A DNA stretch of 59,640 bases, taken from positions 1 to 59,640 of the forward strand of contig JAMOPY010000036.1 of NCBI GenBank assembly GCA_027064305.1, written 5' to 3'. The DNA is from Methanobacteriota archaeon (GTDB lineage Archaea; JAADCQ01; Methanopyri; Methanopyrales; Methanopyraceae). Under the pieces are notes generated by a model. The model saw only the letters and a list, made by a program, of their open reading frames with translations. It made no database searches and was not told the origin of the DNA. This document shows positions 23,603 through 48,644 of this stretch, piece after piece. Within the stretch, counting starts at the first letter, position 1; every line of letters begins with the position of its first letter. A program made the translations under genes and the position numbers.

Positions 23603-23625
23603 ATCGTTACGCTATCCTTAACGAT
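23603..23625. promoter_or_regulatory. Spaced palindrome ATCGTTA-N9-TAACGAT (copy 1)
   Basis: ATCGTTA cgctatcct TAACGAT between the nrdD stop and the radical SAM start; two more copies in the window. Confidence 0.75.
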
Positions 23626-23640
23626 AGGCCGTGGTCGGGG

Positions 23641-25425
23641 TTAGAGGGAGTGGCGGTACCGCTCCCGGTGCTCCTGCTTCTTACCGTCCACGAACGAGTC
23701 CACGGGGGCCAGGTACCCGGTCACCCGGGACCACACCGTGGTCCGGGTCCCGCACTCCGGGCACCGCTCCACGACGCCCTCGTAGGTGCGTTGGCACCGG
23801 TCGCAGACGCTGTAGTCCCGGGTGAAGGCCAGGAACCCGACGGTGTTCTTGCGCATGAGTCGCACGCCGAACTTGGCCAGGGTCTCCGGGAAGTCCACGC
23901 GCTCCCCCAGCCAGATGTGCGCGATGTGCCCACCGAGCGTGAGCGGATGGAACCTCGCCTCTAGCTCCACGCGGTCCACGACGTCGAGCTCCACGTCGTA
24001 CGGCACGTGGCACGAGTTGGTCAGGTACGGGCGCTCCCTGGTCCCGCGGACGACGGCCTCGTCCCCGAACTTCCTCAGGTAGGCGCGGGCGAGCCGCTCG
24101 GCCGCGGACTCCGCGGGGGACTGGACGACCGACCACCGGCGCCCGTCCCGCTCGTGGAACTCCTCGCGGATCTCGTTCAGGTACTCCACGACCCGAAGGG
24201 CCAGCCGGAGGGCCGACCGATCCTCCCAGAAGTGGGACCCGGTGAGCACCTCGATCGCCTCGGCGAGCCCCACGAACCCGAGGCTCCAGGTCGTGTGCTC
24301 GTACCGGAAGTAGGGCTCTCCCTCCCCGTTCGGCCGCCAGTTCTGGCACCCGTCGTACAGCCCCGCCTCGAGGCACCGCTTCACGCACCGCCACCGGGCC
24401 AGGAGGGCCCGCCGAGCGAGCTCGCAGTACTCCCGGAGCCGCTCGAGGAACGCGTCCTCGTCCCCCGCCTCGTGCGCGATCAGGGGCAGGTTCAGCGTCA
24501 CGTACTCGAAGTTGCCCGTGCGGATGGTGTCCACGTCCCACTCGCCCGTCCAGTTCGTCGCCAGGCAGGTCCGACAGCCCATGTAGTTCACGTTCTCGCC
24601 CACGATCCGACGCCACTTCGGGTTGAGCAGGTTGGCGAAGTACACGGCCCCGTTCTCGGCCGCCACCCGGAAGGCGAGCTCCAGCGTCTCCTCGTCGTAC
24701 CCCGGCCGCACCTTGACGATCAGCTGCGGGAACTTGAGCGGGGCCCCGGCCGCATCCCCCTCCAGCTGCACCTCCAGCAGGGCCCGGGCGAACATGATCG
24801 CCTCCTCCTCGAAGTCCCCGTAGGTTCCCACCACCCGACCCCGGGGACCGATCGCCGGCTCGTCCTCCAGGAACTCCGGGCAGGTGAGCTCGAGGTTCAC
24901 GTTGGTGAACGCGGGCTGGCCGCCTCGGGCCACGAGGTCCTGCGTCGCCTCGAACATCATGATCTGCGCCAGCTGCTTGACCTCCCCGTAGCTGAGCCCC
25001 TCCTCCGCGATGTAGGGGGCCACGAGGAAGTTCACGAAGTCCTGACCCTGACCCCCGGCGAAGAAGTTCTGCGACGTCATCAGCCACTTCAGGATGTGCA
25101 GGACCGCCACCTCCGCGTGCTTCGCCGGCTTGCTCACGCACGTGAGTCGACCGATGGGGCTGCGCGCGTACAGCCCGTGCCTCAGTACCCACCGGCAGTC
25201 GTGCTGACAGCAGTTGGACCGGGTCAGGGCGTAGTCCAGGTCGTGAATGTGCAGGTAACCCTCCCGGTGCGCCCGGGCCACCTCGGGCTCCAGCACGTCG
25301 TTCAGGAACCGCTCCTTCTGCACCCGGTCCTGCAGCAGCTTCGAGACCACCTCCGGCGTGGGGAGCATGTTCGCGTTCCGGGCCGCCCGGATCGGCTCCT
25401 CCAGCACCTCTTCCGGCAGCTCCAC
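23641..25425 (-). CDS. nrdD: Class III (anaerobic) ribonucleoside-triphosphate reductase, no ATP cone
   Basis: 'H..G.LHIHDLD', 'NCC', 'AGGQ', 'YMGCRT', 'GN..YVTLNLP', 'YLTNS', Zn CxxC..CPxCG, glycyl-radical 'SRVTGY'. Confidence 0.93.
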   Translation of the reverse strand: MELPEEVLEEPIRAARNANMLPTPEVVSKLLQDRVQKERFLNDVLEPEVARAHREGYLHIHDLDYALTRSNCCQHDCRWVLRHGLYARSPIGRLTCVSKPAKHAEVAVLHILKWLMTSQNFFAGGQGQDFVNFLVAPYIAEEGLSYGEVKQLAQIMMFEATQDLVARGGQPAFTNVNLELTCPEFLEDEPAIGPRGRVVGTYGDFEEEAIMFARALLEVQLEGDAAGAPLKFPQLIVKVRPGYDEETLELAFRVAAENGAVYFANLLNPKWRRIVGENVNYMGCRTCLATNWTGEWDVDTIRTGNFEYVTLNLPLIAHEAGDEDAFLERLREYCELARRALLARWRCVKRCLEAGLYDGCQNWRPNGEGEPYFRYEHTTWSLGFVGLAEAIEVLTGSHFWEDRSALRLALRVVEYLNEIREEFHERDGRRWSVVQSPAESAAERLARAYLRKFGDEAVVRGTRERPYLTNSCHVPYDVELDVVDRVELEARFHPLTLGGHIAHIWLGERVDFPETLAKFGVRLMRKNTVGFLAFTRDYSVCDRCQRTYEGVVERCPECGTRTTVWSRVTGYLAPVDSFVDGKKQEHRERYRHSL

Positions 25426-25573
25426 CTCGACGCCCTGACCGGGAGCGGACCGCGCCGGGTTAAGCCCCCTTCGCCCGCGTTCGCCCCGGGAGCCCCGCGC
25501 TCACCGCGGGCGCGTCGATCACACCCCGCCGGGGCGCCCGGTATGTTTTCCGTTTGGAAAAAGTTGCCGATAC

Positions 25574-27202
25574 CTAAGGTTCTCCCGAAATGTCACGAAC
25601 CCATTCCAGCGCCTCAAACCTTAGCTTTGGCCCCTCATGCGCGAGCCTCAACAGGTTCACCGCCGCCTCACTACCCCGCTCCCGGCACAGCCGCCGAAAC
25701 AGCTTCAGCGCGCGCCGCTCCGAGGCCAACGCCGTCCGAACGTACTCCCGTTCGAACTCCTCCGACTCCACGATCTCCGGCCGCTCCACCAGCTCCTCCA
25801 TCACGTCCTCACCGACGTTACCCAGCGAGGCCACCCACCACGGCAGCAGCGTCGCCTCCTCCCACCCCACCGTCACCTCTCCACCGTCCCACCGAATCCG
25901 GATCCCCTCCAACGGCTCCAACGAGCCCAACGACACGCCCACCGGAAACGCCCGCAGCGCCTCCCTCACCGGGCGCGTCCCCACCCGATCCGCCACCTCG
26001 CCCACCGCATCCAGCACCGACACCGGATCGTGCGCCTCCGCCGGCGGGTTCAGCGTCATGGCGAACCCCAGCCCGACGCCCGACAGGCAGGCCGCCTCGA
26101 ACGCCTCCTCCGGCTCCCCCTCCACCACCACCTCCCACGGCGTCTCCACCCGCACGTCCACCCCCTCCACCTCACCCAGGAGCACCTCCGGCAGCATCCC
26201 CAGGTCCGCCCGGCGCGCGAACCACGCCAGACGGGAGAGCGACATCGGAGCCCCCCTCAGCGGGCGGAACCGGCGACCCCGCCACCACCCCCACCACCGG
26301 TACAGGCCCGCCCACGCGTCCCCCTCCCCCGGCGAGGGCACCTCACCCCGCTCCTCACCCAACCGAGCCTGCCGCACCCGGTCCACCAGCGGATCCGCGT
26401 CCTCCCGGGGCCGGATCGGACCCCGGACGGCCACCCACACGTTCCAGTCCCCGGCCTCCTCCAGCACGTCCTCCGGCTCCACCGGGACCCGACCGTCCCC
26501 GGCCCTCACCACCAGACCCAGGAAGCACCGGTCCGTCTGGTAGACCACCAGCTCGGGGTGATCCACGAACTCCGCCGCCACCGGCTCCACCTCCCCCACC
26601 GCCTCCACCAGCCACAGCTCCAGCCCCGGCGTCCTAACCCTCGGAAGCTTCTTGCCCAGCGCCAACCACTCCAGCGCCTCCAGCCGGTCCCGCTGGTACC
26701 GGGGGAGCTCCCTCGCCTCGGGCGCGTCCAGCACCGGCGACAGCTCGTCCACGCACCGCCACGGGTCCCCCCGGTACCCCAACGCCTGCAGCAACGGCGC
26801 GCACGCGAGCGCGGCCGCCGCGTGCAGGAGGTCCTCCGACTCCCCCTCCCCCTCCACCAGCGCCGCGGTCAGCGCCAGGAATGCCCGCCCGTGCGTGGCG
26901 AACCCCACGTCGCAGTACTCGATCTCCGGGTAGAGCCGTCCGCCCCGGGCCACGAACGGCCGGGCCGGCACGACCAGGTCCAGGGTGGACGTCTGCAGGC
27001 TCTCCAGCAGGCCGCCGGGACCGCGGTACCGCTCCGCCAGCAGCTCGCTGGCGTCACCCACGGGATCCTCGCACCGGGCCCGGTACTCCAGGTACACCGG
27101 CTCCCGCCGGAACGCCACCCGGAACGCGTGCCGACCCGGCCGGAGACGCCGCTTCCTCGGGCTCCCCAGGAAAACGTCTTGTAGCTCGAACCCCACCTCC
27201 AA
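25574..27202 (-). CDS. Hypothetical protein (about 540 aa)
   Basis: Long ORF with E/V/G-rich composition like neighbouring genes; TTG start at 27202. Confidence 0.65.
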   Translation of the reverse strand: MEVGFELQDVFLGSPRKRRLRPGRHAFRVAFRREPVYLEYRARCEDPVGDASELLAERYRGPGGLLESLQTSTLDLVVPARPFVARGGRLYPEIEYCDVGFATHGRAFLALTAALVEGEGESEDLLHAAAALACAPLLQALGYRGDPWRCVDELSPVLDAPEARELPRYQRDRLEALEWLALGKKLPRVRTPGLELWLVEAVGEVEPVAAEFVDHPELVVYQTDRCFLGLVVRAGDGRVPVEPEDVLEEAGDWNVWVAVRGPIRPREDADPLVDRVRQARLGEERGEVPSPGEGDAWAGLYRWWGWWRGRRFRPLRGAPMSLSRLAWFARRADLGMLPEVLLGEVEGVDVRVETPWEVVVEGEPEEAFEAACLSGVGLGFAMTLNPPAEAHDPVSVLDAVGEVADRVGTRPVREALRAFPVGVSLGSLEPLEGIRIRWDGGEVTVGWEEATLLPWWVASLGNVGEDVMEELVERPEIVESEEFEREYVRTALASERRALKLFRRLCRERGSEAAVNLLRLAHEGPKLRFEALEWVRDISGEP

Positions 27203-27210
27203 CCGGGATC

Positions 27211-27274
27211 CCCCCGATGAGGAGTGCACTACCGCCCGAGCTGAATGAGGAGGGGTCGCTTCGCCGAGGCGGGG
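27211..27274 (+). ncRNA. Box C/D guide sRNA
   Basis: AUGAGGA(27217)-gugcacuaccgc-CCGA-gcuga-AUGAGGA-ggggucgcuucg-CCGA(27267); two 12-nt guides; flanking cccc/gggg. Confidence 0.82.
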
Positions 27275-27281
27275 ACCGAGG

Positions 27282-27698
27282 TTGAGCGATCGCGCCCGAA
27301 AAATCGTGCGCGTAAAGGCCCGGGGCGAGGTCGTGCGCACCCTGTCCGAGGTGGTGGAGGAGGGCCTCGAGCTCAGCGTCTTAAACGCCACGGTGACCCC
27401 GGACTCGATCACCGCCGAGCTGGCCGTGCAGGCCCCCGAGGAGGGCCAGGTCCGCGAGTTCCTGCGCACGCTCCGAAGGTTCGGCCTGGAGGTGGAGGAG
27501 CTGGAGAAAACGCTGATTCACGACGAGGAAACGTGCGTGCACTGCACCGCCTGCCACTCCGTCTGCCCCGTCGGCGCCGTCCTCGTGGAGAACCACGAGG
27601 TGTCCTTCGACGAGGACGAGTGCATCGTGTGCGGCTCCTGCGTCGAGATCTGCCCCACCGGCGCCCTCAAGATCGCCTCGAAGGAGGGTGGGGAATGA
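27282..27698 (+). CDS. NIL-domain 2[4Fe-4S] ferredoxin (MA1822/MJ0099-like)
   Basis: 'LSVLNA.V' NIL-like domain; 'CVHCTACHSVCP', 'CIVCGSCVEICP'. Confidence 0.82.
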   Translation: MSDRARKIVRVKARGEVVRTLSEVVEEGLELSVLNATVTPDSITAELAVQAPEEGQVREFLRTLRRFGLEVEELEKTLIHDEETCVHCTACHSVCPVGAVLVENHEVSFDEDECIVCGSCVEICPTGALKIASKEGGE

Positions 27699-28711
27699 GG
27701 TTCTGGGTCGCCCACCCCGGGCACACCCGCGGACTGAGGACCCTCCTCTCCGGGATCGAGGACCTGCGCCGCGTGGAGGCCGTGTACGCCGGCGGCTCCC
27801 CCGAGCGCATCGGCACGGGCCGCCCCAACCTGCATTACCCCACGATCGACGAGGTGCGCGAGCAGGTCGAGCTCGCCCACTCTCACGACGTCCGGTACGA
27901 CGTGGTCGTCAACTCCACCTGCCCCCTCCGCGGCGAGCCCACCCGCCGCGTCCTCGAGCGCTACGACCGGTACCTCCGGGACCTCGAGCGGGCGGGCGTC
28001 GACGGGATCGTCGCCGCCGACCCGATCATCCTGGAGCTGGCCGCCGAGTACTTCGACCGGGTGACCGTCTCCTGCCTCGCCTTCGTCAACGACCCCGAGA
28101 AGGCGGAGCACTACGAGGACGTCGCCACCGCGATCACCCTCGACACGTCGCACAACCGGCGCTTCGAGACCCTGGAGGCGCTCTCCCGGCTGGGGATGGA
28201 GCTCAAGGTCATCGTCAACGAGGGCTGCCTGCTGGACTGCCCCTACCGACCCTTCCACTTCAACCTGTTCTCGCACCTGTACGGGCCCGACGAGGTCTCC
28301 GTGTACGATGACTACTACTACCGGCGGTGCATCGCGGACCGCCTCCGCCACCCGGAGCTGATCATCAAGTCCCCGTGGATCCGGCCCGAGGACCTCGAGC
28401 ACTACGAGCCCTACGTGGACGCGTTCAAGATCTCGGGGCGCTCGCACCAGGTGCGCTGGATCGTCAAGGTCGTTAACGCGTACCTGGAGGGGCGCTGGGA
28501 CGGGAACCTGCTCGACCTCCTGGACTGCCCCCGGGAGCTCCGGGACTACTTCTACCTGGACAACCGGGCGCTGGATGGGGCCATCGAGCGCTGGAAGGAG
28601 TGCGACCACCGGTGCCACGAGTGCGGGTTCTGCCGGGAGCTGGCGGAACGCGCCCTGCGCGTGAGGGAGTTTCGGCGCCCGGAGGCGGCGACCGCGGGTG
28701 AGCGGGCTTGA
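27695..28711 (+). CDS. Peptidase U32-family Fe-S protein
   Basis: 'G.GRP', 'GVDGIVAADP', 'VNEGCLLDCP', 'WIRPEDL', 'FKISGR', C-terminal Cys cluster. Confidence 0.85.
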   Translation: MRFWVAHPGHTRGLRTLLSGIEDLRRVEAVYAGGSPERIGTGRPNLHYPTIDEVREQVELAHSHDVRYDVVVNSTCPLRGEPTRRVLERYDRYLRDLERAGVDGIVAADPIILELAAEYFDRVTVSCLAFVNDPEKAEHYEDVATAITLDTSHNRRFETLEALSRLGMELKVIVNEGCLLDCPYRPFHFNLFSHLYGPDEVSVYDDYYYRRCIADRLRHPELIIKSPWIRPEDLEHYEPYVDAFKISGRSHQVRWIVKVVNAYLEGRWDGNLLDLLDCPRELRDYFYLDNRALDGAIERWKECDHRCHECGFCRELAERALRVREFRRPEAATAGERA

Positions 28712-29049
28712 TCGAGCGGTGCGCGGAGTACCTGCGCCGCCTGGAGGAGCGGCTCGAGGAGGGGATGGTCACCGAGGTGGACGCGTTCGTGGCCCGGTGC
28801 GGCTGCGTGGGCGTCGTCTTCATGCTCCGGGGCGTCCGCCTGGACGACGTCACCGACGGGGTCATCGCCGTCGTTCAGCGCGCGGCCCGGGAGGTGGGGG
28901 CGGACCCCGACATCATGTACGCCCGGGTGGTCCCGGGTACGGACCTGGTCATCGACCTGGGCGCGCGCACCCTCTGCGAGACGTGCGAGCGCGAGTTCTC
29001 CGGCGAGGAACCGCGGCCCGACCTGAGGGTGCTCCGGGGCGGTCGGTGA
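28708..29049 (+). CDS. Small conserved methanogen-type Cys protein
   Basis: 'DAFVARCGCVG', 'CETC..EF'; translationally coupled on both sides. Confidence 0.65.
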   Translation: MIERCAEYLRRLEERLEEGMVTEVDAFVARCGCVGVVFMLRGVRLDDVTDGVIAVVQRAAREVGADPDIMYARVVPGTDLVIDLGARTLCETCEREFSGEEPRPDLRVLRGGR

Positions 29050-29744
29050 TGCGCTGGTACCTCTGCGCGTCCGAGCACCAGCTCGAGCACCTGCCCGACG
29101 ACGCCGACGGGGTGGTCGTCCCCTACCCGGGGCTCGGGGTCGCCACGCTGCTGCCCCGGTACCCCTCCGAGTCCGAGGCCGAGCGGATGATCCGCGAGGC
29201 GGCGGACCGGGGCTTGCGGGTGCAGGCGCTCGCCGACTTCACGTGTTCCGGGTGCGAGCACCTGTCCGCGTCCGGGCACGGGACGTTCCGCTCCACCCTG
29301 GAGTACCTGGCGCACGACCTGGAGGTGGACGGCCTGGTGGTCGCGGACCCGTACGCGGTGGAGCTGGCGGCCGGGCTCGACGTGACCGTGGTCGTCTCGC
29401 ACACCGCCGCCGTGGACACGCCCGAGAAGGCCTGGTACTTCGACCGACTCGGGGCCGACGTGATCACGGTGGACCCGTCCCTGAACGAGGACGAGTCGAC
29501 CGTCGACGCCGTACGGGAGCGCGTCTCCGCCCGCCTGCGCGCGGCCGTTAACGCGGTGACCTGGCGGGACCCGGTCGCGTACTTCGAGCGGAACCTGCGG
29601 TCGCACCTCACCCGGCGCGGGGAGTCCCCCTCACCCTACAAGAACGACCCGTACGGGCCGCTCCGAAGGAGGAGGGTGGTGCGAGGGGTCCGGGAGGAGC
29701 TCTTCGACGAGGTGCTCATCATCCTCGGCGGAGAGCCTCCGTGA
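29049..29744 (+). CDS. Short U32-like protein
   Basis: 'VDGLVVADPY', 'VSH.A.VDT', 'LGADVIT.D..LN' resemble the U32 N-terminal region. Confidence 0.7.
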   Translation: MRWYLCASEHQLEHLPDDADGVVVPYPGLGVATLLPRYPSESEAERMIREAADRGLRVQALADFTCSGCEHLSASGHGTFRSTLEYLAHDLEVDGLVVADPYAVELAAGLDVTVVVSHTAAVDTPEKAWYFDRLGADVITVDPSLNEDESTVDAVRERVSARLRAAVNAVTWRDPVAYFERNLRSHLTRRGESPSPYKNDPYGPLRRRRVVRGVREELFDEVLIILGGEPP

Positions 29745-31218
29745 TGTCCGTCCGGGTGACGATCCCCACCACCCGATTCTCCTCGTCCACCACGGGCAGG
29801 CAGGAGATGTTGTGCCGGTTCATCCGCTCCAGCGCCTCGTTCACGGTCTCGTGCGGCCGGATCGTCACCACGTCCTCGGTCATGATCTCCCTCAACCGCT
29901 TCTTACCCTCCGCCACCGCGGCCGCGATGTCCCAGGAGGTGACGATGCCGACGAGCCTACCCTCCTCGTCCACGACCGGAACGTGGTTGATCTCCTCCTC
30001 GATGAGCTTCCTCGCCACCTCCTCGATGCTCTCATCCGGGTGGGCCGTGATCACCCGCCTCGTCATGATGTCCCTGATCCGAGGCAGGTGAGGGGGCCGG
30101 CTCGGCATCGGCCTCGGGCTCACGTCCCGGGGCAGCCGCTCGACCGGCTCCGTGAGCAGGAACTCACCCTCCTCGATCTCCTCCCGCAGCCGCTCCGCGA
30201 TCTCCCGGGCCATCCGGTAGCTCGACAGGGCCCCGGTCCGCACCCTCCGCCCCTCGATCTCCACCCTGCCGGACCGCAGCTCCGCGTAGGTGACCCGGGC
30301 CACCACCGGCCGGTCCCGGGACCGCACCCCGTAGTCCACCACCGGCACCTCGATGTCCTCGTCCCGGACCGCCGTTGACTCGGCCACCTTCTCGTCCAGC
30401 ACCGGGATGGGCACGCCGATGCCCACCGCCAGGCTCACGCCGTAGTTCTTCAGCACGACCGGGCGCAGGAACTCCGGGTCCGCCTCCTTCAAGTCCCCCC
30501 TCACCATCAGGGTGGCCATGCCGCCCCGCGGGTCGTGCTGCGTGCCCTCCCCGATGACGTACCCGCGCGAGCCCGCCAGCCAGATCCGCGTCCCGATCCC
30601 GATCGTGCGGAGCTCGGGATCGTTGGCGAGCGGGTTCAGCTGCCCCGCCCCGCAGTAGGTCACGTTCCCGTACTCCGGGAGCAGCACCCCCATGTAGGTG
30701 TACAGCGTCTCCTCGGACGAGTTCGTGGCGGCCACGTACCGCTGGTAGCAGTTCCTGGGGTTCACCAGCACCGCCTGGTTCAGATCCTCGATCGTGATGA
30801 GCGTCTCCACGGACTCCTTCGGGTAACAGTCCGTCCCGGCCCCCTCGGCCCGCAGGACGACCTCCTCACCCGCCGCCAGCTCGTGGATCACGTGCGCTCC
30901 ACCGTACTCGATCCCCCGATCCTCGCTCGGCTGGGCCGCCCCCAGGTACGCGTCCACCGCCGCCAGACCCGTGTACGCCTCCACCTCGTTCAACCACACG
31001 CGCTGCATCTTGATGGGCGGGTCCGAGTGCCCGAAGTTCAGGAACACGCCGGAGCTGCACATGGGCCCGAACGTCGCGCACGTGACCACGTCCACCTCCT
31101 TCGCGGCCCGCTCCGCCCCCACGTCCTCCACGATCTCGATCATCTCCTCCGCGGTGACGACGCAGGCCTCACCGCGCCTGATCCGCTCGTTGATCTCCTC
31201 CACGCTCTTCCGCCGCAA
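29719..31218 (-). CDS. DUF39 + CBS protein; L-aspartate-semialdehyde sulfurtransferase (MJ0100/MA1821-type homocysteine synthesis)
   Basis: 'VDVVT.ATFGPMCSSG', 'YGGAHVI', 'NPRN.YQ', 'IG.GTRI'; two C-terminal CBS domains. Confidence 0.9.
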   Translation of the reverse strand: MRRKSVEEINERIRRGEACVVTAEEMIEIVEDVGAERAAKEVDVVTCATFGPMCSSGVFLNFGHSDPPIKMQRVWLNEVEAYTGLAAVDAYLGAAQPSEDRGIEYGGAHVIHELAAGEEVVLRAEGAGTDCYPKESVETLITIEDLNQAVLVNPRNCYQRYVAATNSSEETLYTYMGVLLPEYGNVTYCGAGQLNPLANDPELRTIGIGTRIWLAGSRGYVIGEGTQHDPRGGMATLMVRGDLKEADPEFLRPVVLKNYGVSLAVGIGVPIPVLDEKVAESTAVRDEDIEVPVVDYGVRSRDRPVVARVTYAELRSGRVEIEGRRVRTGALSSYRMAREIAERLREEIEEGEFLLTEPVERLPRDVSPRPMPSRPPHLPRIRDIMTRRVITAHPDESIEEVARKLIEEEINHVPVVDEEGRLVGIVTSWDIAAAVAEGKKRLREIMTEDVVTIRPHETVNEALERMNRHNISCLPVVDEENRVVGIVTRTDITEALRRG

Positions 31219-32323: not shown

Positions 32324-32351
32324 GACGGATCACCCGCCCGGGGGAACCACC

Positions 32352-33182
32352 GTGGGGCTCCTCGACGCCCTCTTCGGCGACGAGGGCGCCGACCGGGGCG
32401 AAACCGAGGTGGAGAAGGTTCGAGAGGAAGTCCTCCGGGTCCGCCTCCTCCGCGGCCCGGCCTACTTTAAAAACGACAGCGTCATCGCGGCCCGGGGCGA
32501 CCTGGAGTTCTCCGCCACCCGACCCGTCCGCACGTCCGGCGGCCTCACCGGGCTCCTGGAGAAGGTACTCAAGGTCAAGCTGCTGGGAATGCGACGCCAC
32601 TTCGTCCGCGCGGACGGCTCCGGCGTGGTGTACGCCGGCGACGGCGGCCGAATCCACGTGCTCGACGTTCCCGAGGGCGAGCGCCTCACCGTGAACCAGG
32701 ACCGCCTCCTGTTCACCGACGCCCCCGCCGACGTGGTCGCCCAGCTGGACGCCAGCATCCTGAGCACCGGACTCGTCGACCTGGGATTCGAGGGACCGTG
32801 CCGGGTCGCGGTCACCGCGGAGTGCGACCCGGTGACCCTGGAGGTGAGCGACGGGGAACCCGTCCTCGTGGACCCGGAGTGCCTGATCGCGTGGACGGGC
32901 GACGTCACCTTCGAGGCCACCTGGCAGGGCAGCGCCCTGGACCTGCTCCTGGGCCGCAAGCACGGGGAGGAACTCATGCTCAGGGCGCGCGGGTCCGGAA
33001 AGGTGCTCGTGTCCCCGTACGACGAGCGACTCCGGAGGCTCGAGCGGATGGTGCGTCGGGCGATGAGCGCCCGCGAGGAGCACCTCCACCACGGCGACTC
33101 CGAGGCGTGGGAGGACGAGACCGAGGCCGACGACGCGCTCGACCTGGACCTCGACGACTTCCTCGACTTCGACCTGGACTGA
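32352..33182 (+). CDS. AIM24/DUF124-like protein with acidic tail
   Basis: 'GSGVVY', 'VDP..LIAW', 'GE...L.ARGSGKVLV'. Confidence 0.7.
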   Translation: MGLLDALFGDEGADRGETEVEKVREEVLRVRLLRGPAYFKNDSVIAARGDLEFSATRPVRTSGGLTGLLEKVLKVKLLGMRRHFVRADGSGVVYAGDGGRIHVLDVPEGERLTVNQDRLLFTDAPADVVAQLDASILSTGLVDLGFEGPCRVAVTAECDPVTLEVSDGEPVLVDPECLIAWTGDVTFEATWQGSALDLLLGRKHGEELMLRARGSGKVLVSPYDERLRRLERMVRRAMSAREEHLHHGDSEAWEDETEADDALDLDLDDFLDFDLD

Positions 33183-33203
33183 CCTCCCGCCTCCCGCGGG
33201 CCG

Positions 33204-33226
33204 ATCGTTATGATTTTCATAACGAT
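33204..33226. promoter_or_regulatory. Spaced palindrome ATCGTTA-N9-TAACGAT (copy 2; perfect 10-bp arms)
   Basis: ATCGTTATGA ttt TCATAACGAT, 6 nt past the tRNA-His CCA. Confidence 0.78.
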
Positions 33227-33232
33227 TGCCGC

Positions 33233-33310
33233 TGGGGCCGCGGCCGGGATTTGAACCCGGGACCACCGGCTCCACAGGCCGGCGCTCTAACCAGGCTGAG
33301 CTGCCGCGGC
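33233..33310 (-). tRNA. tRNA-His(GUG); CCA encoded, C8, C73, no encoded G-1
   Basis: gccgcgg-ca-gctc-agcctggtta-gagc-g-ccggc-ctGTGga-gccgg-tggtc-ccggg-ttcaaat-cccgg-ccgcggc-c-cca. Confidence 0.96.
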
Positions 33311-33340
33311 GCCCTCCCAACCCACGGAGCCCCGCGTCCT

Positions 33341-33356
33341 CATTATAAAGATTTCC
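33341..33356 (-). promoter_or_regulatory. BRE/TATA promoter of tRNA-His
   Basis: ggaaatcTTTATAAtg on the minus strand about 33 nt upstream of the tRNA; overlaps the TAA stop of the upstream gene. Confidence 0.7.
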
Positions 33357-35376: not shown

Positions 35377-35387
35377 CCGGGCCGCCC

Positions 35388-37082: not shown

Positions 37083-37107
37083 CAGAACCCGCTACCGCCC
37101 CCTCAAC

Positions 37108-37122
37108 GCACGTTAATAAAGC
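37108..37122 (+). promoter_or_regulatory. TATA-like element in the divergent carB/membrane gene gap
   Basis: cgTTAATAAAg is the only AT-rich tract in the 75-bp gap. Confidence 0.55.
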
Positions 37123-37157
37123 CATCGACGGCACGGCCGGCCGGGGTGAGGCGCCCG

Positions 37158-41295: not shown

Positions 41296-41320
41296 GCCGG
41301 CGCTCACGGGGGCGAGATCG

Positions 41321-42097: not shown

Positions 42098-42660
42098 CCG
42101 CCCGCCGGCCGCTTCATCCTTAGGAGGATCCACCACGTCATCGCCTCCAGCCCCACCGCCGCGCCCACCGCCGCCAGGAACTGCGGAATCACCGAGGGTA
42201 GCGGCACGATGGGCCACGCTTGGTACCTGTACGCGGCCACGAGAACGTTGGACGCCGCCGTGATCACCGAGCCGAGGGCCAGCGACTCCCGCGGTCCCGG
42301 CCTCCGAATCTCGCTCACGATCCACGCCGCGGTCAGCGCGCCCGAGTAGAGCACGTCCGCCCACTGGTCCACGCCCGCGGTCACGACCGCGAGCGCCGAC
42401 CCCACGGCGTAGACCAGGATCGCCGCGTCCACCACCCCGTACGTCAGCAGCACCGGGGCCCCGGTGAGGTACGCGTACAGGTTGCCGGGCACGGGAATGA
42501 AGATCCCGTACGTCAGGAGCAGGACCGGGGACAGGTAAACCAGCGAGTACAGCTGGACCAGCGTGCCGCCCAGCCTGCGCGCCACCAGGTACAGCGAGAC
42601 CGCGAACGGCAGGCTCGTGATCGCGGTGTTAACGATCACCACCGTCCTCGGATCCAACAT
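42094..42660 (-). CDS. Hypothetical membrane protein
   Basis: About six hydrophobic helices. Confidence 0.65.
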   Translation of the reverse strand: MLDPRTVVIVNTAITSLPFAVSLYLVARRLGGTLVQLYSLVYLSPVLLLTYGIFIPVPGNLYAYLTGAPVLLTYGVVDAAILVYAVGSALAVVTAGVDQWADVLYSGALTAAWIVSEIRRPGPRESLALGSVITAASNVLVAAYRYQAWPIVPLPSVIPQFLAAVGAAVGLEAMTWWILLRMKRPAGG

Positions 42661-43057
42661 GCGCGGATCTCCCGACGAACGCCCTCGTGAGCTCTCGCAG
42701 GTAGAGGCGCAGGGCGCTCCGGACGTCGCCCTCCTTCAGGGCCCGTTCCAGCTCCTCCTCCGACCCCGTTTCCAGGGACTCGCGCCGGCGATCGGCCAGT
42801 CCTCGGGCCGCCTCTAGCAGCGTCCTCTCCCCGGTCAACCCGTACAGGGCGACCAACGCGGCCTCCGACGCGAGGCTGAACTCCGGCGGGGTCCACGGGA
42901 CCCGGGAGAACACGATCACGAAGGCGATCATCAGCGTCAGCGCGATCAGCAGCGGGGCCAGCGCGATCACCAGGACGATCAGGAGGGCGGGGAGCACGAC
43001 GACCAGGAAGAAAACGTACGCGAGGGATCGGACCGCCTCGCCGCGAGCCTCACCCAC
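42629..43057 (-). CDS. Hypothetical membrane protein (two TM helices plus helical domain)
   Basis: Hydrophobic N-half; directly follows the nucleotidyltransferase stop. Confidence 0.6.
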   Translation of the reverse strand: MGEARGEAVRSLAYVFFLVVVLPALLIVLVIALAPLLIALTLMIAFVIVFSRVPWTPPEFSLASEAALVALYGLTGERTLLEAARGLADRRRESLETGSEEELERALKEGDVRSALRLYLRELTRAFVGRSAHVGSEDGGDR

Positions 43058-44158
43058 CTAGATCACCCACCGGTCCTCCAGGTCCTCGCTCACTTCCTTA
43101 CCGGGGGCCACCCGGACGGACCTCAGCGTGCACCCCTCCACCTCGGCGTCGTGCCCGAGCACGCACCCATCCAGCTCGGCGTCCCGAACCCGGCACCGCT
43201 CCGCAACGATCGAGTCCCGAATCTCCGCGTTCTCCACGCGCGCATCCGCCAGGATGACCGAGTTCTCGATCACGGACCCGCCGATCCGGACCCGCCCCCC
43301 GACGTACACGTAGGGCCCGATCGTCGAGCCCCGGAGCTCGCTCATCGGGTCGATCACCACGGGATCCCGTAAGGTCGCGCCGTCCGACCTGACCCCCACC
43401 AGCGCCCGGTCCGAGCACTCGTGATCCATGAGCATCCGGTGGGCCTCCAGGTACGTCTCCGGGAGCCCGACGTCGATCCAGTACCCCTCGAACCTGAACC
43501 CGTACAGGAGCCCCTCCTCGGCCAGCCGCGGAAAGACCTCGCGCTCGATGGAGACGGGCCGACCCTCGGGGATGTAATCGAGCACCTCCCGGTCCAGGAC
43601 GTAGGCGCCGGCGTTGATCAGGTTGGACGGCGCCTCCTCCGGGTCCGGCTTCTCGACGAAGCGGCGGATCCGATCCTCCCCGTCCAGCTCCACGACGCCG
43701 AACCGGGAGACCTCGTCCTCGGGCACCGGGTACAGGGCGACCGTCGCGATGCCGTCGTGCTCCCGGTGGAACCTGAGCATCTCGCGCACGTTCAGGGACG
43801 AAATAACATCCCCGTTGAAGACGATGAACGCGTCGGCGGTCGAGTCCCTGCAGGCGAACTTGATCGCGCCCGCCGTGTCCAGGGGCCGGGGCTCCACCCT
43901 CAGACGGAGCCGACGCGGCAGCGGGTTGCACTCGACGTACCGCTCCAGCTTCTCGGAGCTGAAGCCCGCGGCCAGGTACACGTGCACGACGTCGTCGGGC
44001 AGCCCCCGGATCACCCACTCAAGCAGCGGCCGACCGAGGATCGGGACCAGGGGCTTGGGCGTGTCCCACGTGAGCGGCCTCAGCCGGGTGCCGAACCCGC
44101 CCGCCAGGACCACCGCGTCCACGTTCAACGTCGCGACCCCGGCTACAGGTGCTCCCAC
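43058..44158 (-). CDS. NDP-sugar pyrophosphorylase (mannose-1-phosphate guanylyltransferase-like)
   Basis: 'LAGGFGTRLRPLT...PKP', 'PLDTAGA', 'FVEKP', 'INAG.Y', 'SIERE.FP', left-handed beta-helix tail. Confidence 0.85.
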   Translation of the reverse strand: MGAPVAGVATLNVDAVVLAGGFGTRLRPLTWDTPKPLVPILGRPLLEWVIRGLPDDVVHVYLAAGFSSEKLERYVECNPLPRRLRLRVEPRPLDTAGAIKFACRDSTADAFIVFNGDVISSLNVREMLRFHREHDGIATVALYPVPEDEVSRFGVVELDGEDRIRRFVEKPDPEEAPSNLINAGAYVLDREVLDYIPEGRPVSIEREVFPRLAEEGLLYGFRFEGYWIDVGLPETYLEAHRMLMDHECSDRALVGVRSDGATLRDPVVIDPMSELRGSTIGPYVYVGGRVRIGGSVIENSVILADARVENAEIRDSIVAERCRVRDAELDGCVLGHDAEVEGCTLRSVRVAPGKEVSEDLEDRWVI

Positions 44159-45072
44159 CAGTCCTTGGCGCGGGACGTGTTGACTGGCCCGTACGCCGCG
44201 TCGATCGCCAGGTACAGGCTGGGTAGGGCCACGATCGGCGCGTTCGGGTCGTCCGGATCGACCTTAACGTTTACCGCCTCCTCCGGCTCGAAGACGTGAG
44301 CCTCGCCCCCGGAGCGCTCCTCGATGAGCTCCGCGCTCCCCTCGTTCAGGCACACGTACAACCGGCGCGAGTGATCCCCGAAGAACCGGCCGTGAAAGAG
44401 CTCGTCGGTCGTGGTGGCCAGGGCGTTTGCGTCCCCCACCTCGACGGCCTTGAGGGCGGCCTGCTCGGCGGCGACGTGCAGGTACCCGTCCCCCACGAAG
44501 AACACCTTCTCGCACGCGCGCAGCGCCTCGACCAGCTCCTCGTTCGGCCCGCCCTCCAGGGCCCGCTCCACGCTCTCCGGAACCCCCGGATCCACCAGGT
44601 CCCGACCGACCATCTCGGAGACGTAGAGGCAGAACGCGTACATCGCGGCGACGATGGTCCGCGTGTTCAGGAAGCCCTCCTCCCGCTCCACCGGGATCAC
44701 GAGGACGGAGTCGGCCACGCGAGCCAGCGGGGAGTCCTCCTCGCACGTGACGGCCACCACCTCCGCGCGCTCGAAGCTCCGGGCCACCTCGTGGGAGTCC
44801 TTCCCCCCGGAGATGGAGAAGACGATGACCGCGTCCGACCCGTCCACCCACGGGGCCATCTTCCCGGGGTAGGGGGCAGCGGCCACCCGAGCCTCCCGGG
44901 TGAGCAGCATCGAGGCGTAGTAAGCCACGTGGTAACTGCTGCCGGAGCCCGTCGTGACGATGAACTCATGCCCCGTGAGGTCCGGACCCGTCGGTCGCTC
45001 CCTCAGGACGGCCCTGAGGGCCTCGGGCGTCCTCCTAACGTCGTTGACCATCCGCTCGCTCAAGCAGGACAC
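44143..45072 (-). CDS. Double SIS-domain phosphosugar isomerase-like protein
   Basis: 'TGSGSSY', 'SISG', 'SPLARVAD', 'ALKAVE', 'ELFHG'. Confidence 0.75.
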   Translation of the reverse strand: MSCLSERMVNDVRRTPEALRAVLRERPTGPDLTGHEFIVTTGSGSSYHVAYYASMLLTREARVAAAPYPGKMAPWVDGSDAVIVFSISGGKDSHEVARSFERAEVVAVTCEEDSPLARVADSVLVIPVEREEGFLNTRTIVAAMYAFCLYVSEMVGRDLVDPGVPESVERALEGGPNEELVEALRACEKVFFVGDGYLHVAAEQAALKAVEVGDANALATTTDELFHGRFFGDHSRRLYVCLNEGSAELIEERSGGEAHVFEPEEAVNVKVDPDDPNAPIVALPSLYLAIDAAYGPVNTSRAKDWWEHL

Positions 45073-45496
45073 CCCAGGTGATCACGTTGTTCATCCAGTA
45101 GTTCCACAGGGTGGCCGCCGCGATCCCGAACAGGGCCGAAACCATATAGTAAATATGGAGAAATGAGGTCAGCACCCATAGGACGGCTGTGTTTATCACC
45201 ATCCCACCCGCGCAGATCACGTTGAAGGACGCGAGACGCTTCAGGAAGTTGATCAAACCGGGATCGCGCCGGTCCCTCCACGTCCACAAGTCGTTCAATA
45301 TAAAGTTTGATACTATGGACACCTCCACTGCAATCACGTTTGAAATCAAGTAATATATGCCCACGATCTCGGTTAGAAACCACAGCAGCCCTAAGTTCAC
45401 GAAAACCCCGCTCAGCCCGACCAGTGAGAACTTCAGGAACCTCTCCGGGTCGTCGACGCCCGGCACCCTCTCCAGCAGCTCGAGTATCGGCCTCAA
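45035..45496 (-). CDS. GtrA-family (lipid-linked sugar flippase-like) protein
   Basis: 'FLKFSLVGLSGVFVNLG', 'SNFILNDLWTW', 'WNY..N..ITW'; TTG at 45496. Confidence 0.88.
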   Translation of the reverse strand: MRPILELLERVPGVDDPERFLKFSLVGLSGVFVNLGLLWFLTEIVGIYYLISNVIAVEVSIVSNFILNDLWTWRDRRDPGLINFLKRLASFNVICAGGMVINTAVLWVLTSFLHIYYMVSALFGIAAATLWNYWMNNVITWGVLLERADGQRR

Positions 45497-45521
45497 CGCT
45501 CCCTCACCCGGGGGAGACCCG

Positions 45522-46898
45522 ATGGGCCGGCTGTTCGGCACGTTCGGCGTCCGGGGCGTGGTCGGGGAGGACCTGACGGAGGATCTCGCGCGGCGGTTGG
45601 GCCTCGCCTTCGGCACGTACCTGGGGGGCGACGCCGAAGTCTTAATCGGTGGCGACACGAGGACCAGCACGGACACGCTCAAAGACGCGCTCGCCGCCGG
45701 ACTCACGGCCGCGGGCTGCGACGTGACCGACGTCGGCGTCGCGCCCACCCCGGCCGTGCAGTACCTCGTCGAGGCCGAGGGGTTCGACGCGGGCGCCGTG
45801 GTCACGGCCTCGCACAATCCACCCGAGTTCAACGGGATCAAGCTGCTGGGCCCCGACGGGTGCGGGCTCTCGAAGGAGGCGGAGCGGGAGATCGAGCGGA
45901 TCTACTTCGAGGAGGATGGGGAGCGGGTGGGCTGGCGGTCCGTCGGCGAGCGGACCCGCGCCCCCGAGCTCCTGAACGGCTTCGTGGACGCCGTCCTGGA
46001 CTACGTCGGCGACTTCGACGGCGAGGGACTCCGCGTCGTCGTCGACGCCGCCAACGGGGCCGGCGCCACGATCACGCCGCGCCTGCTCTCGGAGCTGGGG
46101 GTGGAGGTCGTCAGCGTGAACGCGCACCCGGACGGGCGCTTCCCGGGCCGCGAACCGGAACCCTCCGAGGAGAACCTGCGCGAGACCATGAGCATGGTCC
46201 GCGCCTCCGACGCCGACTTCGGCATGGCGCACGACGGGGACGCGGACCGGCTTATCCTGATCACCGGGGACGGCCAGTTCGTTCCCGGTGACTACTCCCT
46301 CGCCCTCCTCAGCGCATGGGCGCTGGAGGAGGGTAAGGGGCGCCAGATCGTCACCCCCGTCAGCTCGTCCATGTGCGTGCAGGAGGTGGCGGAGGAGCAC
46401 GGAGGCGAGGTCATCTGGACGAAGGTGGGCGAGCCGGTCGTCGTCGAGGAGCTCAAGCGCGCGGACGATCCCGCGCTCGGCGGGGAGGAGAACGGGGGGA
46501 TCATCTACCCGGACTTCCACCTCTCCCGGAACGGCATCATCACCGCCCTGCTGATCTGCCGGCTCGTCGCCGAGGAGGGATCGCTGAGCGACCTGCTGGC
46601 CCGGATCCCCCGATACCACCTGCACAAGACCGGCGTCGAGTGCCCCGACGACCTGAAGCCGCGCGTGATGGAGGAGGTGGAGTCCCTCGTTGAGGAGGAG
46701 CGGGAGGACGTCGAGGACGTGATCACCATCGACGGGGTGAAGCTGGTCTACGAGGACGGGTGGGTACTCATCCGACCCTCCGGTACGGAGCCCCTGATCC
46801 GCGTGTTCGGGGAGGCCCGGGACGAGGACACGGCCGTGCGGCGCGTGGAGAAGTGGCGCCGGCGCGTGAGGGAGATCGTCCGGAACCTGCAGGGGTAG
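45522..46898 (+). CDS. Phosphomannomutase/phosphoglucomutase (second phosphohexomutase)
   Basis: 'FGTFGVRG', 'TASHNP', 'DGDADR', 'GGEENG', 'RPSGTEP'. Confidence 0.88.
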   Translation: MGRLFGTFGVRGVVGEDLTEDLARRLGLAFGTYLGGDAEVLIGGDTRTSTDTLKDALAAGLTAAGCDVTDVGVAPTPAVQYLVEAEGFDAGAVVTASHNPPEFNGIKLLGPDGCGLSKEAEREIERIYFEEDGERVGWRSVGERTRAPELLNGFVDAVLDYVGDFDGEGLRVVVDAANGAGATITPRLLSELGVEVVSVNAHPDGRFPGREPEPSEENLRETMSMVRASDADFGMAHDGDADRLILITGDGQFVPGDYSLALLSAWALEEGKGRQIVTPVSSSMCVQEVAEEHGGEVIWTKVGEPVVVEELKRADDPALGGEENGGIIYPDFHLSRNGIITALLICRLVAEEGSLSDLLARIPRYHLHKTGVECPDDLKPRVMEEVESLVEEEREDVEDVITIDGVKLVYEDGWVLIRPSGTEPLIRVFGEARDEDTAVRRVEKWRRRVREIVRNLQG

Positions 46899-46902
46899 CC
46901 GG

Positions 46903-48339
46903 ATGGAGCGGCTACGGTGGCGCGAGGCCTCCCCCGCCGAGTTCTTCGAGCGCAACCGGGAGATGCTGGGCTTCGACGGCCCCGTCAAGAGCCTCGTGAT
47001 GGTCGTCCACGAGCTGGTCACCAACGCCATGGACGCCTGCCACCTCCATCGCATCCGACCCGACGTCCGCGTGCACGTGCGACGGACGGGCGAGGACACC
47101 TACCGAGTGCGGGTGCGGGACAACGGCCCGGGCATCCCCCCGGAGCGCGTGCCCTCGGTCTTCGGCAAGTTCCTCGCCGGCGACAAGTTCGATCCCGTGT
47201 ACGGCCTCCAGTCCATGGGACAGCAGGGCATCGGGGCGGCCGGGGTCGCCCTCTACGCCTACATGACCACGGGAGAGCCCGTGCGCGTGCTCACCTCCAC
47301 CGACGGGAGGACCGCCCACTACTTCGAGGTGCACCCCGACCCCAGCGAGAACGAGCCCGTCGTGCTCCGCCGAGAGCGACGACCGGCCACCGAGCGCGGG
47401 ACCCTGGTGGAGGTCACCGTGGGGGAGGCGCGCTACGAGTCCGGGCGCCGAGGACCCCGAGAGTACCTCCGGCGGCTCCACGCCGCCAACCCTCACGCCC
47501 GACTCCTCCTCCGCGACCCGCGCGACCGCGTCCACCGGTGGACGCCCCGGGTGGAGGAGCTCCCGGAACCGCCCAGGGTGCTCAAGCCTCACCCCCACTC
47601 CTTAGACGCCCACAAGCTGCTCCGGCTGGCGGAGCGGACCAACCGGAGGACCGTGCGAACGTTGCTGACGGAGGAGCTCTGCCGCTTCTCTCGCGAGCGG
47701 CTCAACGAGCTGCGAGAGAAACTGCCCGAGGACGTAGACCTGGAAAAAGACCCCCGGGAGCTGACCCGCCGCGAGGCCGAGGCCATCGTCGAGGCGCTTC
47801 GAAGGATGCGGTTCATGCGCCCACCCTCCAACGTCCTCTCGCCCATCGGCGAGGACGCGCTCAAGGCCGCGGTGCGGGCCGAGGGATGCCGGCTGGTCGC
47901 CGCCGTGTCCCGGGACCCCGTCACCACCCGCGATAACGTGCTGCAGGTGGAGGTGGCGGTGGGGCTCGTGGAGGAAGGAGGCGGAGACCTGTGGAGGTAC
48001 GCGAACAGGGCCCCGCTGATGTTCCGCTCCGGCGGCTGCTCGATCACCCAGGGCGTGGAGGATGTGGACTACCATCGCTACGATCTGGACGAGGAGCGGC
48101 TCCTGATCCTGGCGAACGTGAACTCCCCGTTCGTCCCCTTCAGCGGACCCTCCAAGCAGGAGATCGGGAGCGAGCTCGTCCGGGAGGAAGTTAAAAAAGC
48201 GGTGCAGCACGCGTGTCGCCGGCTGGGCCGCGAGGTCCGCCGGTTGAGGCGGGAGCGACGGGAGCGGGAGCGGCTCCGCCGGATCCGCCGGTACCGGGCC
48301 ATCGCCCGGCGTAAGGCCCGAGAGATCCTGGGCCGGTGA
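46903..48339 (+). CDS. top6B: DNA topoisomerase VI subunit B (-like)
   Basis: 'SPAEFFERN..MLGF', GHKL 'ELVTNAMDA', 'DNGPGI', 'GQQGIG', 'KPHP', 'RYANR.PL'. Confidence 0.85.
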   Translation: MERLRWREASPAEFFERNREMLGFDGPVKSLVMVVHELVTNAMDACHLHRIRPDVRVHVRRTGEDTYRVRVRDNGPGIPPERVPSVFGKFLAGDKFDPVYGLQSMGQQGIGAAGVALYAYMTTGEPVRVLTSTDGRTAHYFEVHPDPSENEPVVLRRERRPATERGTLVEVTVGEARYESGRRGPREYLRRLHAANPHARLLLRDPRDRVHRWTPRVEELPEPPRVLKPHPHSLDAHKLLRLAERTNRRTVRTLLTEELCRFSRERLNELREKLPEDVDLEKDPRELTRREAEAIVEALRRMRFMRPPSNVLSPIGEDALKAAVRAEGCRLVAAVSRDPVTTRDNVLQVEVAVGLVEEGGGDLWRYANRAPLMFRSGGCSITQGVEDVDYHRYDLDEERLLILANVNSPFVPFSGPSKQEIGSELVREEVKKAVQHACRRLGREVRRLRRERRERERLRRIRRYRAIARRKAREILGR

Positions 48340-48393
48340 TGAGCTCACGACGGGGAGACCGGTCGGGATGATCGGCCCCCTGGCAGGCTGAAA
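48333..48393 (+). ncRNA. Box C/D guide sRNA overlapping the top6B stop
   Basis: GUGAUGA(48336)-gcucacgacggg-GAGA-ccggucggg-AUGAUCG-gcccccuggcagg-CUGA(48391). Confidence 0.75.
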
Positions 48394-48395
48394 AC

Positions 48396-48480
48396 GGCGC
48401 GGGACGAGGTAGCCGGCGGGGAGCGCACGGGCCTAGACCCGCCGCAATGAGCCGCCGGATGCCGCGGCCGCGCCACACCC
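48396..48480 (+). ncRNA. Single-hairpin H/ACA guide sRNA
   Basis: Lower stem ggcgcgg/ccgcgcc followed by ACA-ccc; pocket gacgagguag/augccgcgg; upper stem ccggcgg/ccgccgg; K-turn gGA...aaUGA. Confidence 0.8.
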
Positions 48481-48494
48481 CCCCGGAAACGGGG

Positions 48495-48561
48495 TCCCGA
48501 TGACGAGCTTCACCCTGTCCGACGCGCCGTGAGGGTGAGGAGGGGAGCGTTTGCCGAGGGG
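48495..48561 (+). ncRNA. Box C/D guide sRNA
   Basis: AUGACGA(48500)-gcuucacccugu-CCGA-12 nt-GUGAGGA-ggggagcguuug-CCGA(48557). Confidence 0.75.
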
Positions 48562-48614
48562 TCAGGGGCGGGAGTACTCTTCACCCATCCGCGGCTTGCA
48601 TGATCATCATCCCC
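48558..48614 (-). ncRNA. Box C/D guide sRNA
   Basis: gggg-AUGAUGA-ucaugcaagccg-CGGA-ugg-GUGAAGA-guacucccgccc-CUGA-cccc. Confidence 0.88.
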
Positions 48615-48621
48615 GACCGCA

Positions 48622-48644
48622 ATCGTTACGAACATCATAACGAT
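48622..48644. promoter_or_regulatory. Spaced palindrome ATCGTTA-N9-TAACGAT (copy 3)
   Basis: aATCGTTA cgaacatca TAACGATt, 7 nt past the tRNA-Asn CCA. Confidence 0.78.

Follow-up and report, generated by a model that had tools for sequence, protein, structure and literature searches.

Taken together, our analyses argue for a short spaced palindrome, ATCGTTA-N9-TAACGAT, as a candidate signal for transcript 3'-end formation in Methanopyrus, a reading to which we give a probability of roughly 0.55. The palindrome occurs three times in a stretch of 59,640 nucleotides (nt) of contig JAMOPY010000036.1 from a Methanobacteriota archaeon (the window is, throughout this text, that whole stretch), and it recurs in the genome to which the window belongs (G000) and in the complete genome of a Methanopyrus congener (G002). 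That it has a 3'-end or terminator role of some kind is probable. The position of the motif, its conservation, its polarity, and the scarcity of T-runs after genes are direct observations. In our model, 3' ends would arise through termination, through cutting of the nascent RNA, or through both, the motif would replace the T-run used by other archaea, and the signal would be read in both directions, with one copy serving two convergent genes.

Form, number, and spread of the palindrome

A first-pass annotation of the window had described three intergenic copies with identical arms and a 9-bp spacing, and all three are exact (23603-23625, 33204-33226, and 48622-48644). Its view that a chance origin is very unlikely is supported by 0 matches to the exact pattern in 100 dinucleotide-preserving shuffles of the window. 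The distances it gave are correct as well: copy 1 is 15 nt past the stop codon of nrdD, copy 2 is 6 nt past a tRNA-His gene, and copy 3 is 7 nt past a tRNA-Asn gene. Copy 2 indeed lies between convergent genes, since it is also 21 nt past the stop codon of a coding sequence (CDS) on the plus strand. Copies 2 and 3 share the inward extension ATCGTTAYGA-N3-TCRTAACGAT, which copy 1 does not have. A further match with two mismatches (42614-42636) is inside a CDS, scored less than 10 bits in a weight-matrix scan, and is probably due to chance.

The genome-wide scan proposed in the first-pass annotation revealed many further copies that are tied to gene 3' ends. G000 (50 contigs, 1,208,994 bases, 69.8% GC, 89% completeness) has 18 exact copies, 36 with one mismatch, and 17 with two mismatches, and the reversed, uncomplemented control pattern gave no match in this genome at up to three mismatches. 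A weight matrix found 88 sites at 10 bits or more in G000, compared to 1 for the reversed matrix. In G002 (1,694,969 bases, 61.2% GC, complete), 9, 29, 45, and 60 copies were counted at 0, 1, 2, and 3 mismatches, and the control gave 12 at three mismatches and none below. The spacing is strict: among the exact-arm pairs of G000, 18 of 19 have a spacer of 9 and one has a spacer of 3, no other length between 0 and 24 occurs, and 9 is the only spacer in G002 (38 of 38 copies at up to one mismatch). Single arms occur in G000 at the rate expected by chance (24 versus 22.5), and therefore, the two arms seem to work only as a pair; independent half-sites are thus ruled out.

The fuller consensus is (A)ATCGTTAYGA-N3-TCRTAACGAT(T), and the core CGTTA-N9-TAACG, which has been published before (see below), is contained in all three window copies. 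The 20 nt on the 5' side of the motif are rich in C (about 0.5), with A and T each below 0.1 at positions -20 to -11, and the C-rich stretch is about 12 to 25 nt long. The 10 nt on the 3' side are rich in G (0.46). This bias of the flanks is absent at gene ends that have no motif.

Conservation in relatives, which the first-pass annotation had named as a check, was found throughout the genus. All five congeners examined hold 25 to 63 copies each at up to one mismatch, compared to 0 to 2 copies in each of 25 other archaeal genomes. A strict pattern with 10-base arms matched 41 stretches among 185,579 species genomes, of which 37 come from three records whose title reads Methanopyri or Methanobacteriota archaeon, the other 4 being single matches in unrelated bacteria; no lineage in this set besides Methanopyrus has more than one strict copy. 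The viral contigs searched had no match to the motif. At the orthologous tRNA-His site (window copy 2), the arms are kept in five of five congeners, while the flanks and the inner spacer have diverged. The copy after nrdD is kept in three of five congeners and is missing in the two others, where a different sequence follows the gene. In these two (G002 and G001), the place of the palindrome after nrdD is taken by a unit that contains cagtcgcacaaa and is present twice (L017 1370-1460 in G002, just past the stop codon); these units could be small-RNA genes.

Position relative to genes

Every assessable tRNA gene of G000 (25 of 25) is followed by the motif, which lies 5 to 10 nt past the encoded CCA, most often 6 nt. 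The count derives from 55 tRNA calls by ARAGORN in intron mode, 23 of which had "introns" of hundreds of bases and were dropped as false; five further atypical calls without an encoded CCA, none of which has the motif, were dropped by judgment. Of the remaining 27 genes, one has no downstream sequence and one has only 17 nt, in which the first arm is visible. In G002, the motif is found 5 to 9 nt past the 3' end in 35 of 36 ARAGORN tRNA calls, and the exception has no CCA. Other stable-RNA genes show a similar arrangement. In G000, the motif is located 12 nt past 5S rRNA, 12 nt past the signal recognition particle (SRP) RNA, 15 nt past RNase P RNA (an Rfam match of 82 bits, just below the cut-off of 84), and 78 and 237 nt past 16S rRNA, whereas the 23S gene is not in the G000 assembly. 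In G002, the motif starts at offsets of +9 (5S), +13 (SRP RNA), +16 (RNase P RNA), +83 (16S), and +146 (23S) from the gene 3' ends.

Protein genes are included as well. About 50 of them have the motif 12 to 30 nt past the stop codon (49 CDS ends in G000 and 58 in G002), and for 60 of the 88 sites of G000, an annotated 3' end is found at a distance of -15 to 60 nt. The distance from the stop codon has a floor: none of the 47 non-negative distances in G000 is below 12 nt, with a range from 12 to about 30 nt, and only 1 of 56 distances in G002 is below 11 nt. In G002, the genes concerned include those for S10, S15, L7Ae, EF-1beta, EF-2, the thermosome, histone, Mch, McrB, and FwdC, which we count as highly expressed, but also those for GlnA, P-II, and ordinary biosynthetic enzymes; 24 of the 53 motif-followed proteins have no family match.

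The type of intergenic gap is informative. Among gaps of 10 to 400 nt in G000, those between convergent genes carry a site in 18 of 48 cases, tandem ones in 28 of 287, and divergent ones in 1 of 106, and the corresponding numbers for G002 are 22 of 110, 42 of 465, and 3 of 166 (Fisher tests, convergent versus divergent, 8e-10 and 3e-7, respectively). A gene 3' end is found on both sides of 33 sites. The order convergent, tandem, divergent is as expected for an element that belongs to gene ends and is the opposite of the pattern expected for a promoter or an operator. A terminator-type role, which was among the options of the first-pass annotation, fits this genome-wide placement.

The arms of the palindrome are not conserved equally. 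At sites with a gene end on one side only (n = 107), mismatches total 65 in the facing arm, the one toward the gene, compared to 108 in the far arm (p = 0.0013); for RNA genes alone, the numbers are 15 and 41. Sites with gene ends on both sides (n = 33) have 0.64 mismatches per arm, close to the value for facing arms (0.61) and below that for far arms (1.01). This polarity suggests that an arm matters more when the polymerase arrives from its side.

T-runs of at least five within 80 nt after genes are found at 3% of 67 ends with the motif and at 6% of 380 ends without it. With T-runs that rare, the usual archaeal signal is largely missing here. Nor is there a U-tract directly after the motif, with T at +1 in 9 of 24 sites and at +2 in 3 of 24.

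The three window copies have the following surroundings. The gene for the anaerobic ribonucleotide reductase, nrdD (23641-25425, minus strand; Pfam NRDD, E = 1.9e-148), points with its 3' end toward copy 1 and is separated from it by a C-rich spacer, as read on the minus strand (23626-23640). Directly downstream of copy 1 is a radical S-adenosylmethionine (SAM) gene (22705-23589, minus strand); its longest open reading frame (ORF) begins 13 nt after the motif, and a likely Shine-Dalgarno (SD) sequence with a GVG start (GTG) is located about 29 nt after it, which leaves no space for a promoter of its own. The radical SAM gene adjoins nrdD in G000, G003, and G005 (window 22705-25425) but is about 500 kb from it in G002 (C1:854777 and 1366943), and therefore, the pair is not a fixed operon. 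Copy 2 is common to two convergent genes: a CDS of the AIM24 family (32352-33182, plus strand), whose 3' end is followed by a C-rich spacer of 21 nt (33183-33203, plus strand), and tRNA-His (GTG) with an encoded CCA (33233-33310, minus strand), which has a trailer of 6 nt (33227-33232, minus strand). Copy 3 follows tRNA-Asn (GTT), likewise with an encoded CCA (48652-48727, minus strand), after a trailer of 7 nt (48645-48651, minus strand). A gene resembling those of C/D-box small RNAs (sRNAs) (48558-48614, minus strand) begins 11 nt beyond copy 3, and the interval has no promoter. It comprises a C box (ATGATGA), 12 nt, CGGA, a C'-like box (GTGAAGA), 12 nt, a D box (CTGA), and an end stem of GGGG/CCCC; we take the box names to apply on the basis of the general consensus, and Rfam gave no match at gathering score for this gene.

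Some further observations concern the genes that carry the motif. CCA is encoded in all credible tRNA genes of G000, and the introns of the 23 dropped ARAGORN calls, all longer than 100 bases and mostly of several hundred to 3,000 bases, look false in this genome of 70% GC. A tRNA-Sec gene (G000 C42:1622-1713), with the palindrome 5 nt later, fits selenocysteine use in the source organism. At G000 C40:11209-12985, a lone 16S rRNA gene is followed first by a palindrome, then, after 6 nt, by a C/D-box-like sRNA, and finally by another palindrome; the 5S gene (C40:18743-18866) is 6 kb away on the other strand. Among the tRNA palindromes, the most degenerate is that of tRNA-Val(TAC) in G002 (C1:584970-585280), a gene located immediately before the 23S rRNA promoter; it has four mismatches, and both cores are broken. 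Co-transcription with 23S as the cause of this degeneration is weakened by a canonical B recognition element (BRE)/TATA sequence between the two; yet tRNA-Val(TAC) is the gene whose RNA contig, in the small-RNA data considered below, extends 140 nt past the motif. Finally, the minus-strand ORF of G002 that ends in EF-2 (L066:16063-19833) has 1257 amino acids, and its first approximately 555 residues match intein-bearing models; it may reflect an intein in EF-2 or an artifact of the ORF call.

Reading of the proposed signal and rival explanations

How could such a signal be recognized? None of the 11 possible arm pairs shows covariation, and G-U and A-C are equally common in the sense strand. 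The predicted energy of the core stem is, on average, -5.5 kcal/mol at 37°C and rises via -0.8 at 70°C to 0 at 95°C, which agrees with the statement of the first-pass annotation that a hairpin would be unstable at the temperature of a hyperthermophile. The lack of covariation and the predicted melting of the hairpin, together with the fixed spacer, the conserved sequence, and the stronger conservation of the facing arm, speak for a sequence-specific reader rather than a free hairpin. According to our model, a sequence-specific factor would read the signal once the polymerase has reached or transcribed the motif, most likely on the nascent RNA, and the upstream RNA would then be released or cut near its mature end. 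Given a 3'-end role, we lean tentatively, at somewhat less than even odds, toward reading at the level of the RNA or of the transcribing complex; reading by a DNA-bound dimer is, under the same premise, possible but doubtful. The universal termination and cleavage factor FttA/aCPSF1, or a genus-specific partner, is the most obvious candidate for the reader or effector. An orthologue of FttA/aCPSF1 is encoded in G000 (C15:25992-27899; TIGR03675, 898 bits versus a cut-off of 580), and the KH domains of the protein are reported, in the accessible text of PMC8716108 and its preprint, to read U-tracts in Methanococcus. Furthermore, 3' processing is described as the first step of tRNA maturation in Methanopyrus kandleri in the accessible part of Su et al. 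2013 (PMC3695527), which agrees with a very early formation of the 3' end.

Several points weigh against a 3'-end signal. The motif is present at 67 of 447 gene ends (about 15%) with a gap of at least 25 nt, and the gene ends were derived from a simple ORF caller based on the contrast of GC at third and second codon positions (GC3/GC2), which is crude and uncurated, with the stop codons being unambiguous. In G002, 16 of 42 tandem sites leave less than 45 nt and no A/T run of at least six before the next gene; in G000, about 11 of 18 tandem sites have, as read by eye, an SD-like, G-rich stretch with a start codon immediately after them, and two C/D-box-like sRNA genes begin 6 to 11 nt after a copy. 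Genes that follow the motif without space for a promoter need read-through, and therefore, the signal is not a tight terminator; since certain genes and small RNAs downstream lack their own promoter, it would have to be leaky. RNA data were available as the assembled contigs of four size-fractionated RNA-seq runs of 2013 (X1 to X4), covering a 6-kb stretch of G002 with four motif copies; the search of the sequence archive also matched two vent metatranscriptomes with a small share of words. In the contigs of X1 to X4, A-tailed ends are found only at the mature CCA ends of tRNAs, and RNA continues past the motif at a depth of about 14 to 17, compared to several hundred or more, up to 1,461, in the tRNA bins. 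Contig breaks at the motif are caused by sequence common to the tRNA-Ala and tRNA-Ile trailers and are uninformative on RNA ends. Finally, the strict spacing and the lack of covariation are no less compatible with a DNA-bound dimer than with a reader at the RNA level.

Such a dimer, bound to the double-stranded palindrome, could act as a roadblock or insulator that stops or slows RNA polymerase, or it could recruit a topoisomerase behind busy genes. The first-pass annotation had favored a dimeric-protein binding site, and this part of its proposal stands as plausible: the spacer of 9 is kept strictly in both genomes, both arms are conserved, pairing has left no trace in the form of covariation or of G-U over A-C, single arms are no more frequent than by chance, and folding predictions leave the RNA hairpin open at 95°C. 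The distance to the tRNAs is difficult to reconcile with a simple DNA roadblock. Known roadblocks stall polymerases about 11 to 14 nt upstream of the block; the motif begins 5 to 10 nt after CCA, and a stall at that distance would truncate the tRNAs. In addition, a DNA-level block offers no evident explanation for the 12-nt floor after stop codons or for the C-rich 5' flank, both of which fit better to a transcript-level signal beyond the reach of the terminating ribosome, low-level RNA runs through the motif, and no candidate protein was found. Consistent with a DNA-bound dimer, tRNA 3' trailers are not prominent in the accessible part of the published RNA-seq account (PMC3695527). On balance, we regard the dimer as an explanation that is possible but unlikely. 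An RNA hairpin that acts alone, as a bacterial-type intrinsic terminator or as a 3' stabilizer against exonucleases, would account for a palindrome after genes at a distance of at least 12 nt from stop codons, as in bacterial terminators, and its stem could be lengthened by the C- and G-rich flanks (11.6 flank-flank pairs versus 5.0 to 5.5 in controls at 37°C and 6.2 versus 2.8 to 3.6 at 95°C). However, the whole element of 73 nt is no more stable at 95°C than random sequence of 70% GC (-2.1 versus -2.0), and swapped flanks fold as well as native ones (-21.7 versus -21.0 kcal/mol), which speaks against specific flank pairing; only the general C-rich versus G-rich composition of the flanks is special. 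With a core stem of 0 kcal/mol at 95°C, no covariation, no preference for G-U over A-C, no U-tract, and a sequence conserved beyond what complementarity explains, the plain hairpin is improbable.

The remaining explanations are less probable still. A signal for tRNA 3' maturation only, as proposed in 2017 (PMC5217627), is attractive in that every tRNA gene has the motif at a nearly fixed distance and in that 3' processing is reported as the first maturation step (PMC3695527, accessible text). It is very unlikely as the sole role, which is contradicted by the fact that just 25 of the 88 G000 copies follow tRNA genes and that copies also follow rRNA, SRP RNA, RNase P RNA, and the protein genes of both genomes. 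We give equally little credit to a selfish repeat of the repetitive extragenic palindromic (REP) type that is spread by a transposase and tolerated only in the spacers at gene ends. A short conserved palindrome with dozens of spacer copies, mostly at 3' ends, and a copy at nrdD that is present in three congeners and absent in two would be in line with this idea, but no Y1 transposase (REP-associated tyrosine transposase [RAYT] or IS200/IS605 type) was found: PF01797 had no match in any of five genomes, with control genomes being positive. The idea was rejected on this basis, and the fixed position after every stable-RNA gene, the orthologous copy kept while its flanks diverge, the dependence of arm conservation on direction, and the lack of copies in viral contigs speak against it as well. 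The least probable reading, close to untenable, is that of a promoter or operator for the downstream gene. An arm with its 5' flank has a loose resemblance to the local BRE/TATA consensus, 28 of 56 sites give their best alignment to the promoter matrix at one and the same offset, and some downstream genes begin 13 to 35 nt after the motif; however, the matrix score is 2.6 bits, with true tRNA promoters reaching 14.6 and random sequence of matched A/T content 0.9, and divergent gaps, which have two promoters each, almost never carry the motif, while convergent gaps, which have none, carry it most often. A promoter was rejected on these grounds, in line with the first-pass annotation, which had held that a simple promoter operator does not fit. 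Its further suggestion of a partition, chromosome-organizing, or recombination site fails to explain a copy 5 to 16 nt after every stable-RNA gene.

Known signals and meaning for Methanopyrus

The motif itself is not new, contrary to the first-pass annotation, which had taken it as undescribed. According to the accessible text of a 2017 paper (BMC Genomics 2017;18:27, PMC5217627), CGTTA(N)9TAACG accompanies roughly half of the M. kandleri AV19 tRNA genes, about 10 bp past their ends, is specific to this species, and may be a signal for tRNA 3' maturation. Core, 9-base spacer, and placement about 10 bp after tRNA genes are the same as those observed here. The published account, as far as its accessible text goes, covers one genome and about half of the tRNA genes, whereas the present motif is found in six genomes, after all assessable tRNAs, after other RNAs, and after about 50 protein genes; polarity, C/G-rich flanks, and the distribution over gene ends go beyond that account too. 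In literature searches on Methanopyrus termination and palindrome motifs, with subscription-only papers outside their scope, the 2017 paper was the only one to treat the motif. Hence, a general role at gene ends appears to be new. New with respect to the literature searched are the occurrence of the motif behind stable-RNA genes of every class and behind many protein genes, its distribution over gene ends, the genus-wide spread, the flanks, the polarity, and the lack of covariation, features that turn a curiosity of tRNA genes into a candidate for a general terminator code.

Archaeal intrinsic termination relies on poly-U and needs no hairpin, as stated in the accessible text of a review (PMC7289017). 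Terminators of the oligo-U type, assisted by FttA or not, and the motif are alike in that they are placed just after genes and are leaky and graded, and the gene for the factor is encoded here (PMC7289017, PMC8716108, and PMC7515710, as far as accessible). In contrast to oligo-U terminators, the motif has no T-run and is a defined palindrome of 23 bases with fixed spacing and G-rich sequence after it. A signal other than a T-stretch has been reported for another high-GC archaeon, Haloferax volcanii, in which the 5-mer AGATC is a termination motif in coding regions, supported by Term-seq and a reporter (Berkemer et al. 2020, PMC7237163, accessible text). Both signals are linked to transcript 3' ends, the one described here by way of gene ends. 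AGATC differs in that it is no spaced palindrome and is not tied to stable-RNA genes.

Bacterial Rho-independent terminators are also palindromes after genes, function in both directions between convergent genes, and lie beyond the terminating ribosome. The stem of the motif, in contrast, is A/U-rich and conserved in sequence, does not covary, has no U-tract behind it, and is not predicted to be stable at growth temperature. REP sequences and bacterial interspersed mosaic elements (BIMEs), which go with RAYT, share with the motif that they are short conserved extragenic palindromes at gene 3' ends in tens to hundreds of copies; the motif differs as a single unit with a fixed position after each stable-RNA gene, orthologous conservation, and no Y1 transposase found. 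Reb1 and TTF-I of the RNA polymerase I system and mitochondrial mTERF1 are sequence-specific, protein-bound, polar terminators just after rRNA or tRNA genes. Compared to these, the distance from the motif to the tRNA ends looks too short for a pure roadblock. The 3' stem-loop of histone mRNA is a conserved element that directs 3' cleavage by a nuclease of the CPSF73 type. If the bolder reading given below is true, the motif would, by analogy, resemble a poly(A) signal or a histone 3' stem-loop in being a defined signal.

In Methanopyrus, with genomes of 61 to 70% GC, there are almost no T-runs after genes, and the cleavage factor TFS is reportedly missing in this hyperthermophile (PMC7289017, accessible text); transcripts must therefore end in some other way. 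The motif is a concrete candidate for the signal. It is short, about 90 to 120 natural copies of graded strength exist, and it makes clear predictions for mutations of core, spacer, and orientation, and therefore, the question is directly testable. The motif could also improve the annotation of gene ends and small RNAs in Methanopyrus genomes. A bolder version of our reading, which we consider speculative and rather unlikely in its full form, is that Methanopyrus has swapped the universal oligo-U terminator for a defined sequence signal that is read by FttA/aCPSF1 with retuned KH domains, or by a genus-specific partner, and at which transcripts are cut or released in either direction. Current explanations of archaeal termination invoke U-tracts, aided by FttA or not. 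If true, the signal proposed here would give archaea their first known terminator code that is sequence-specific and read by a factor, and it would serve all stable RNAs and many highly expressed genes.

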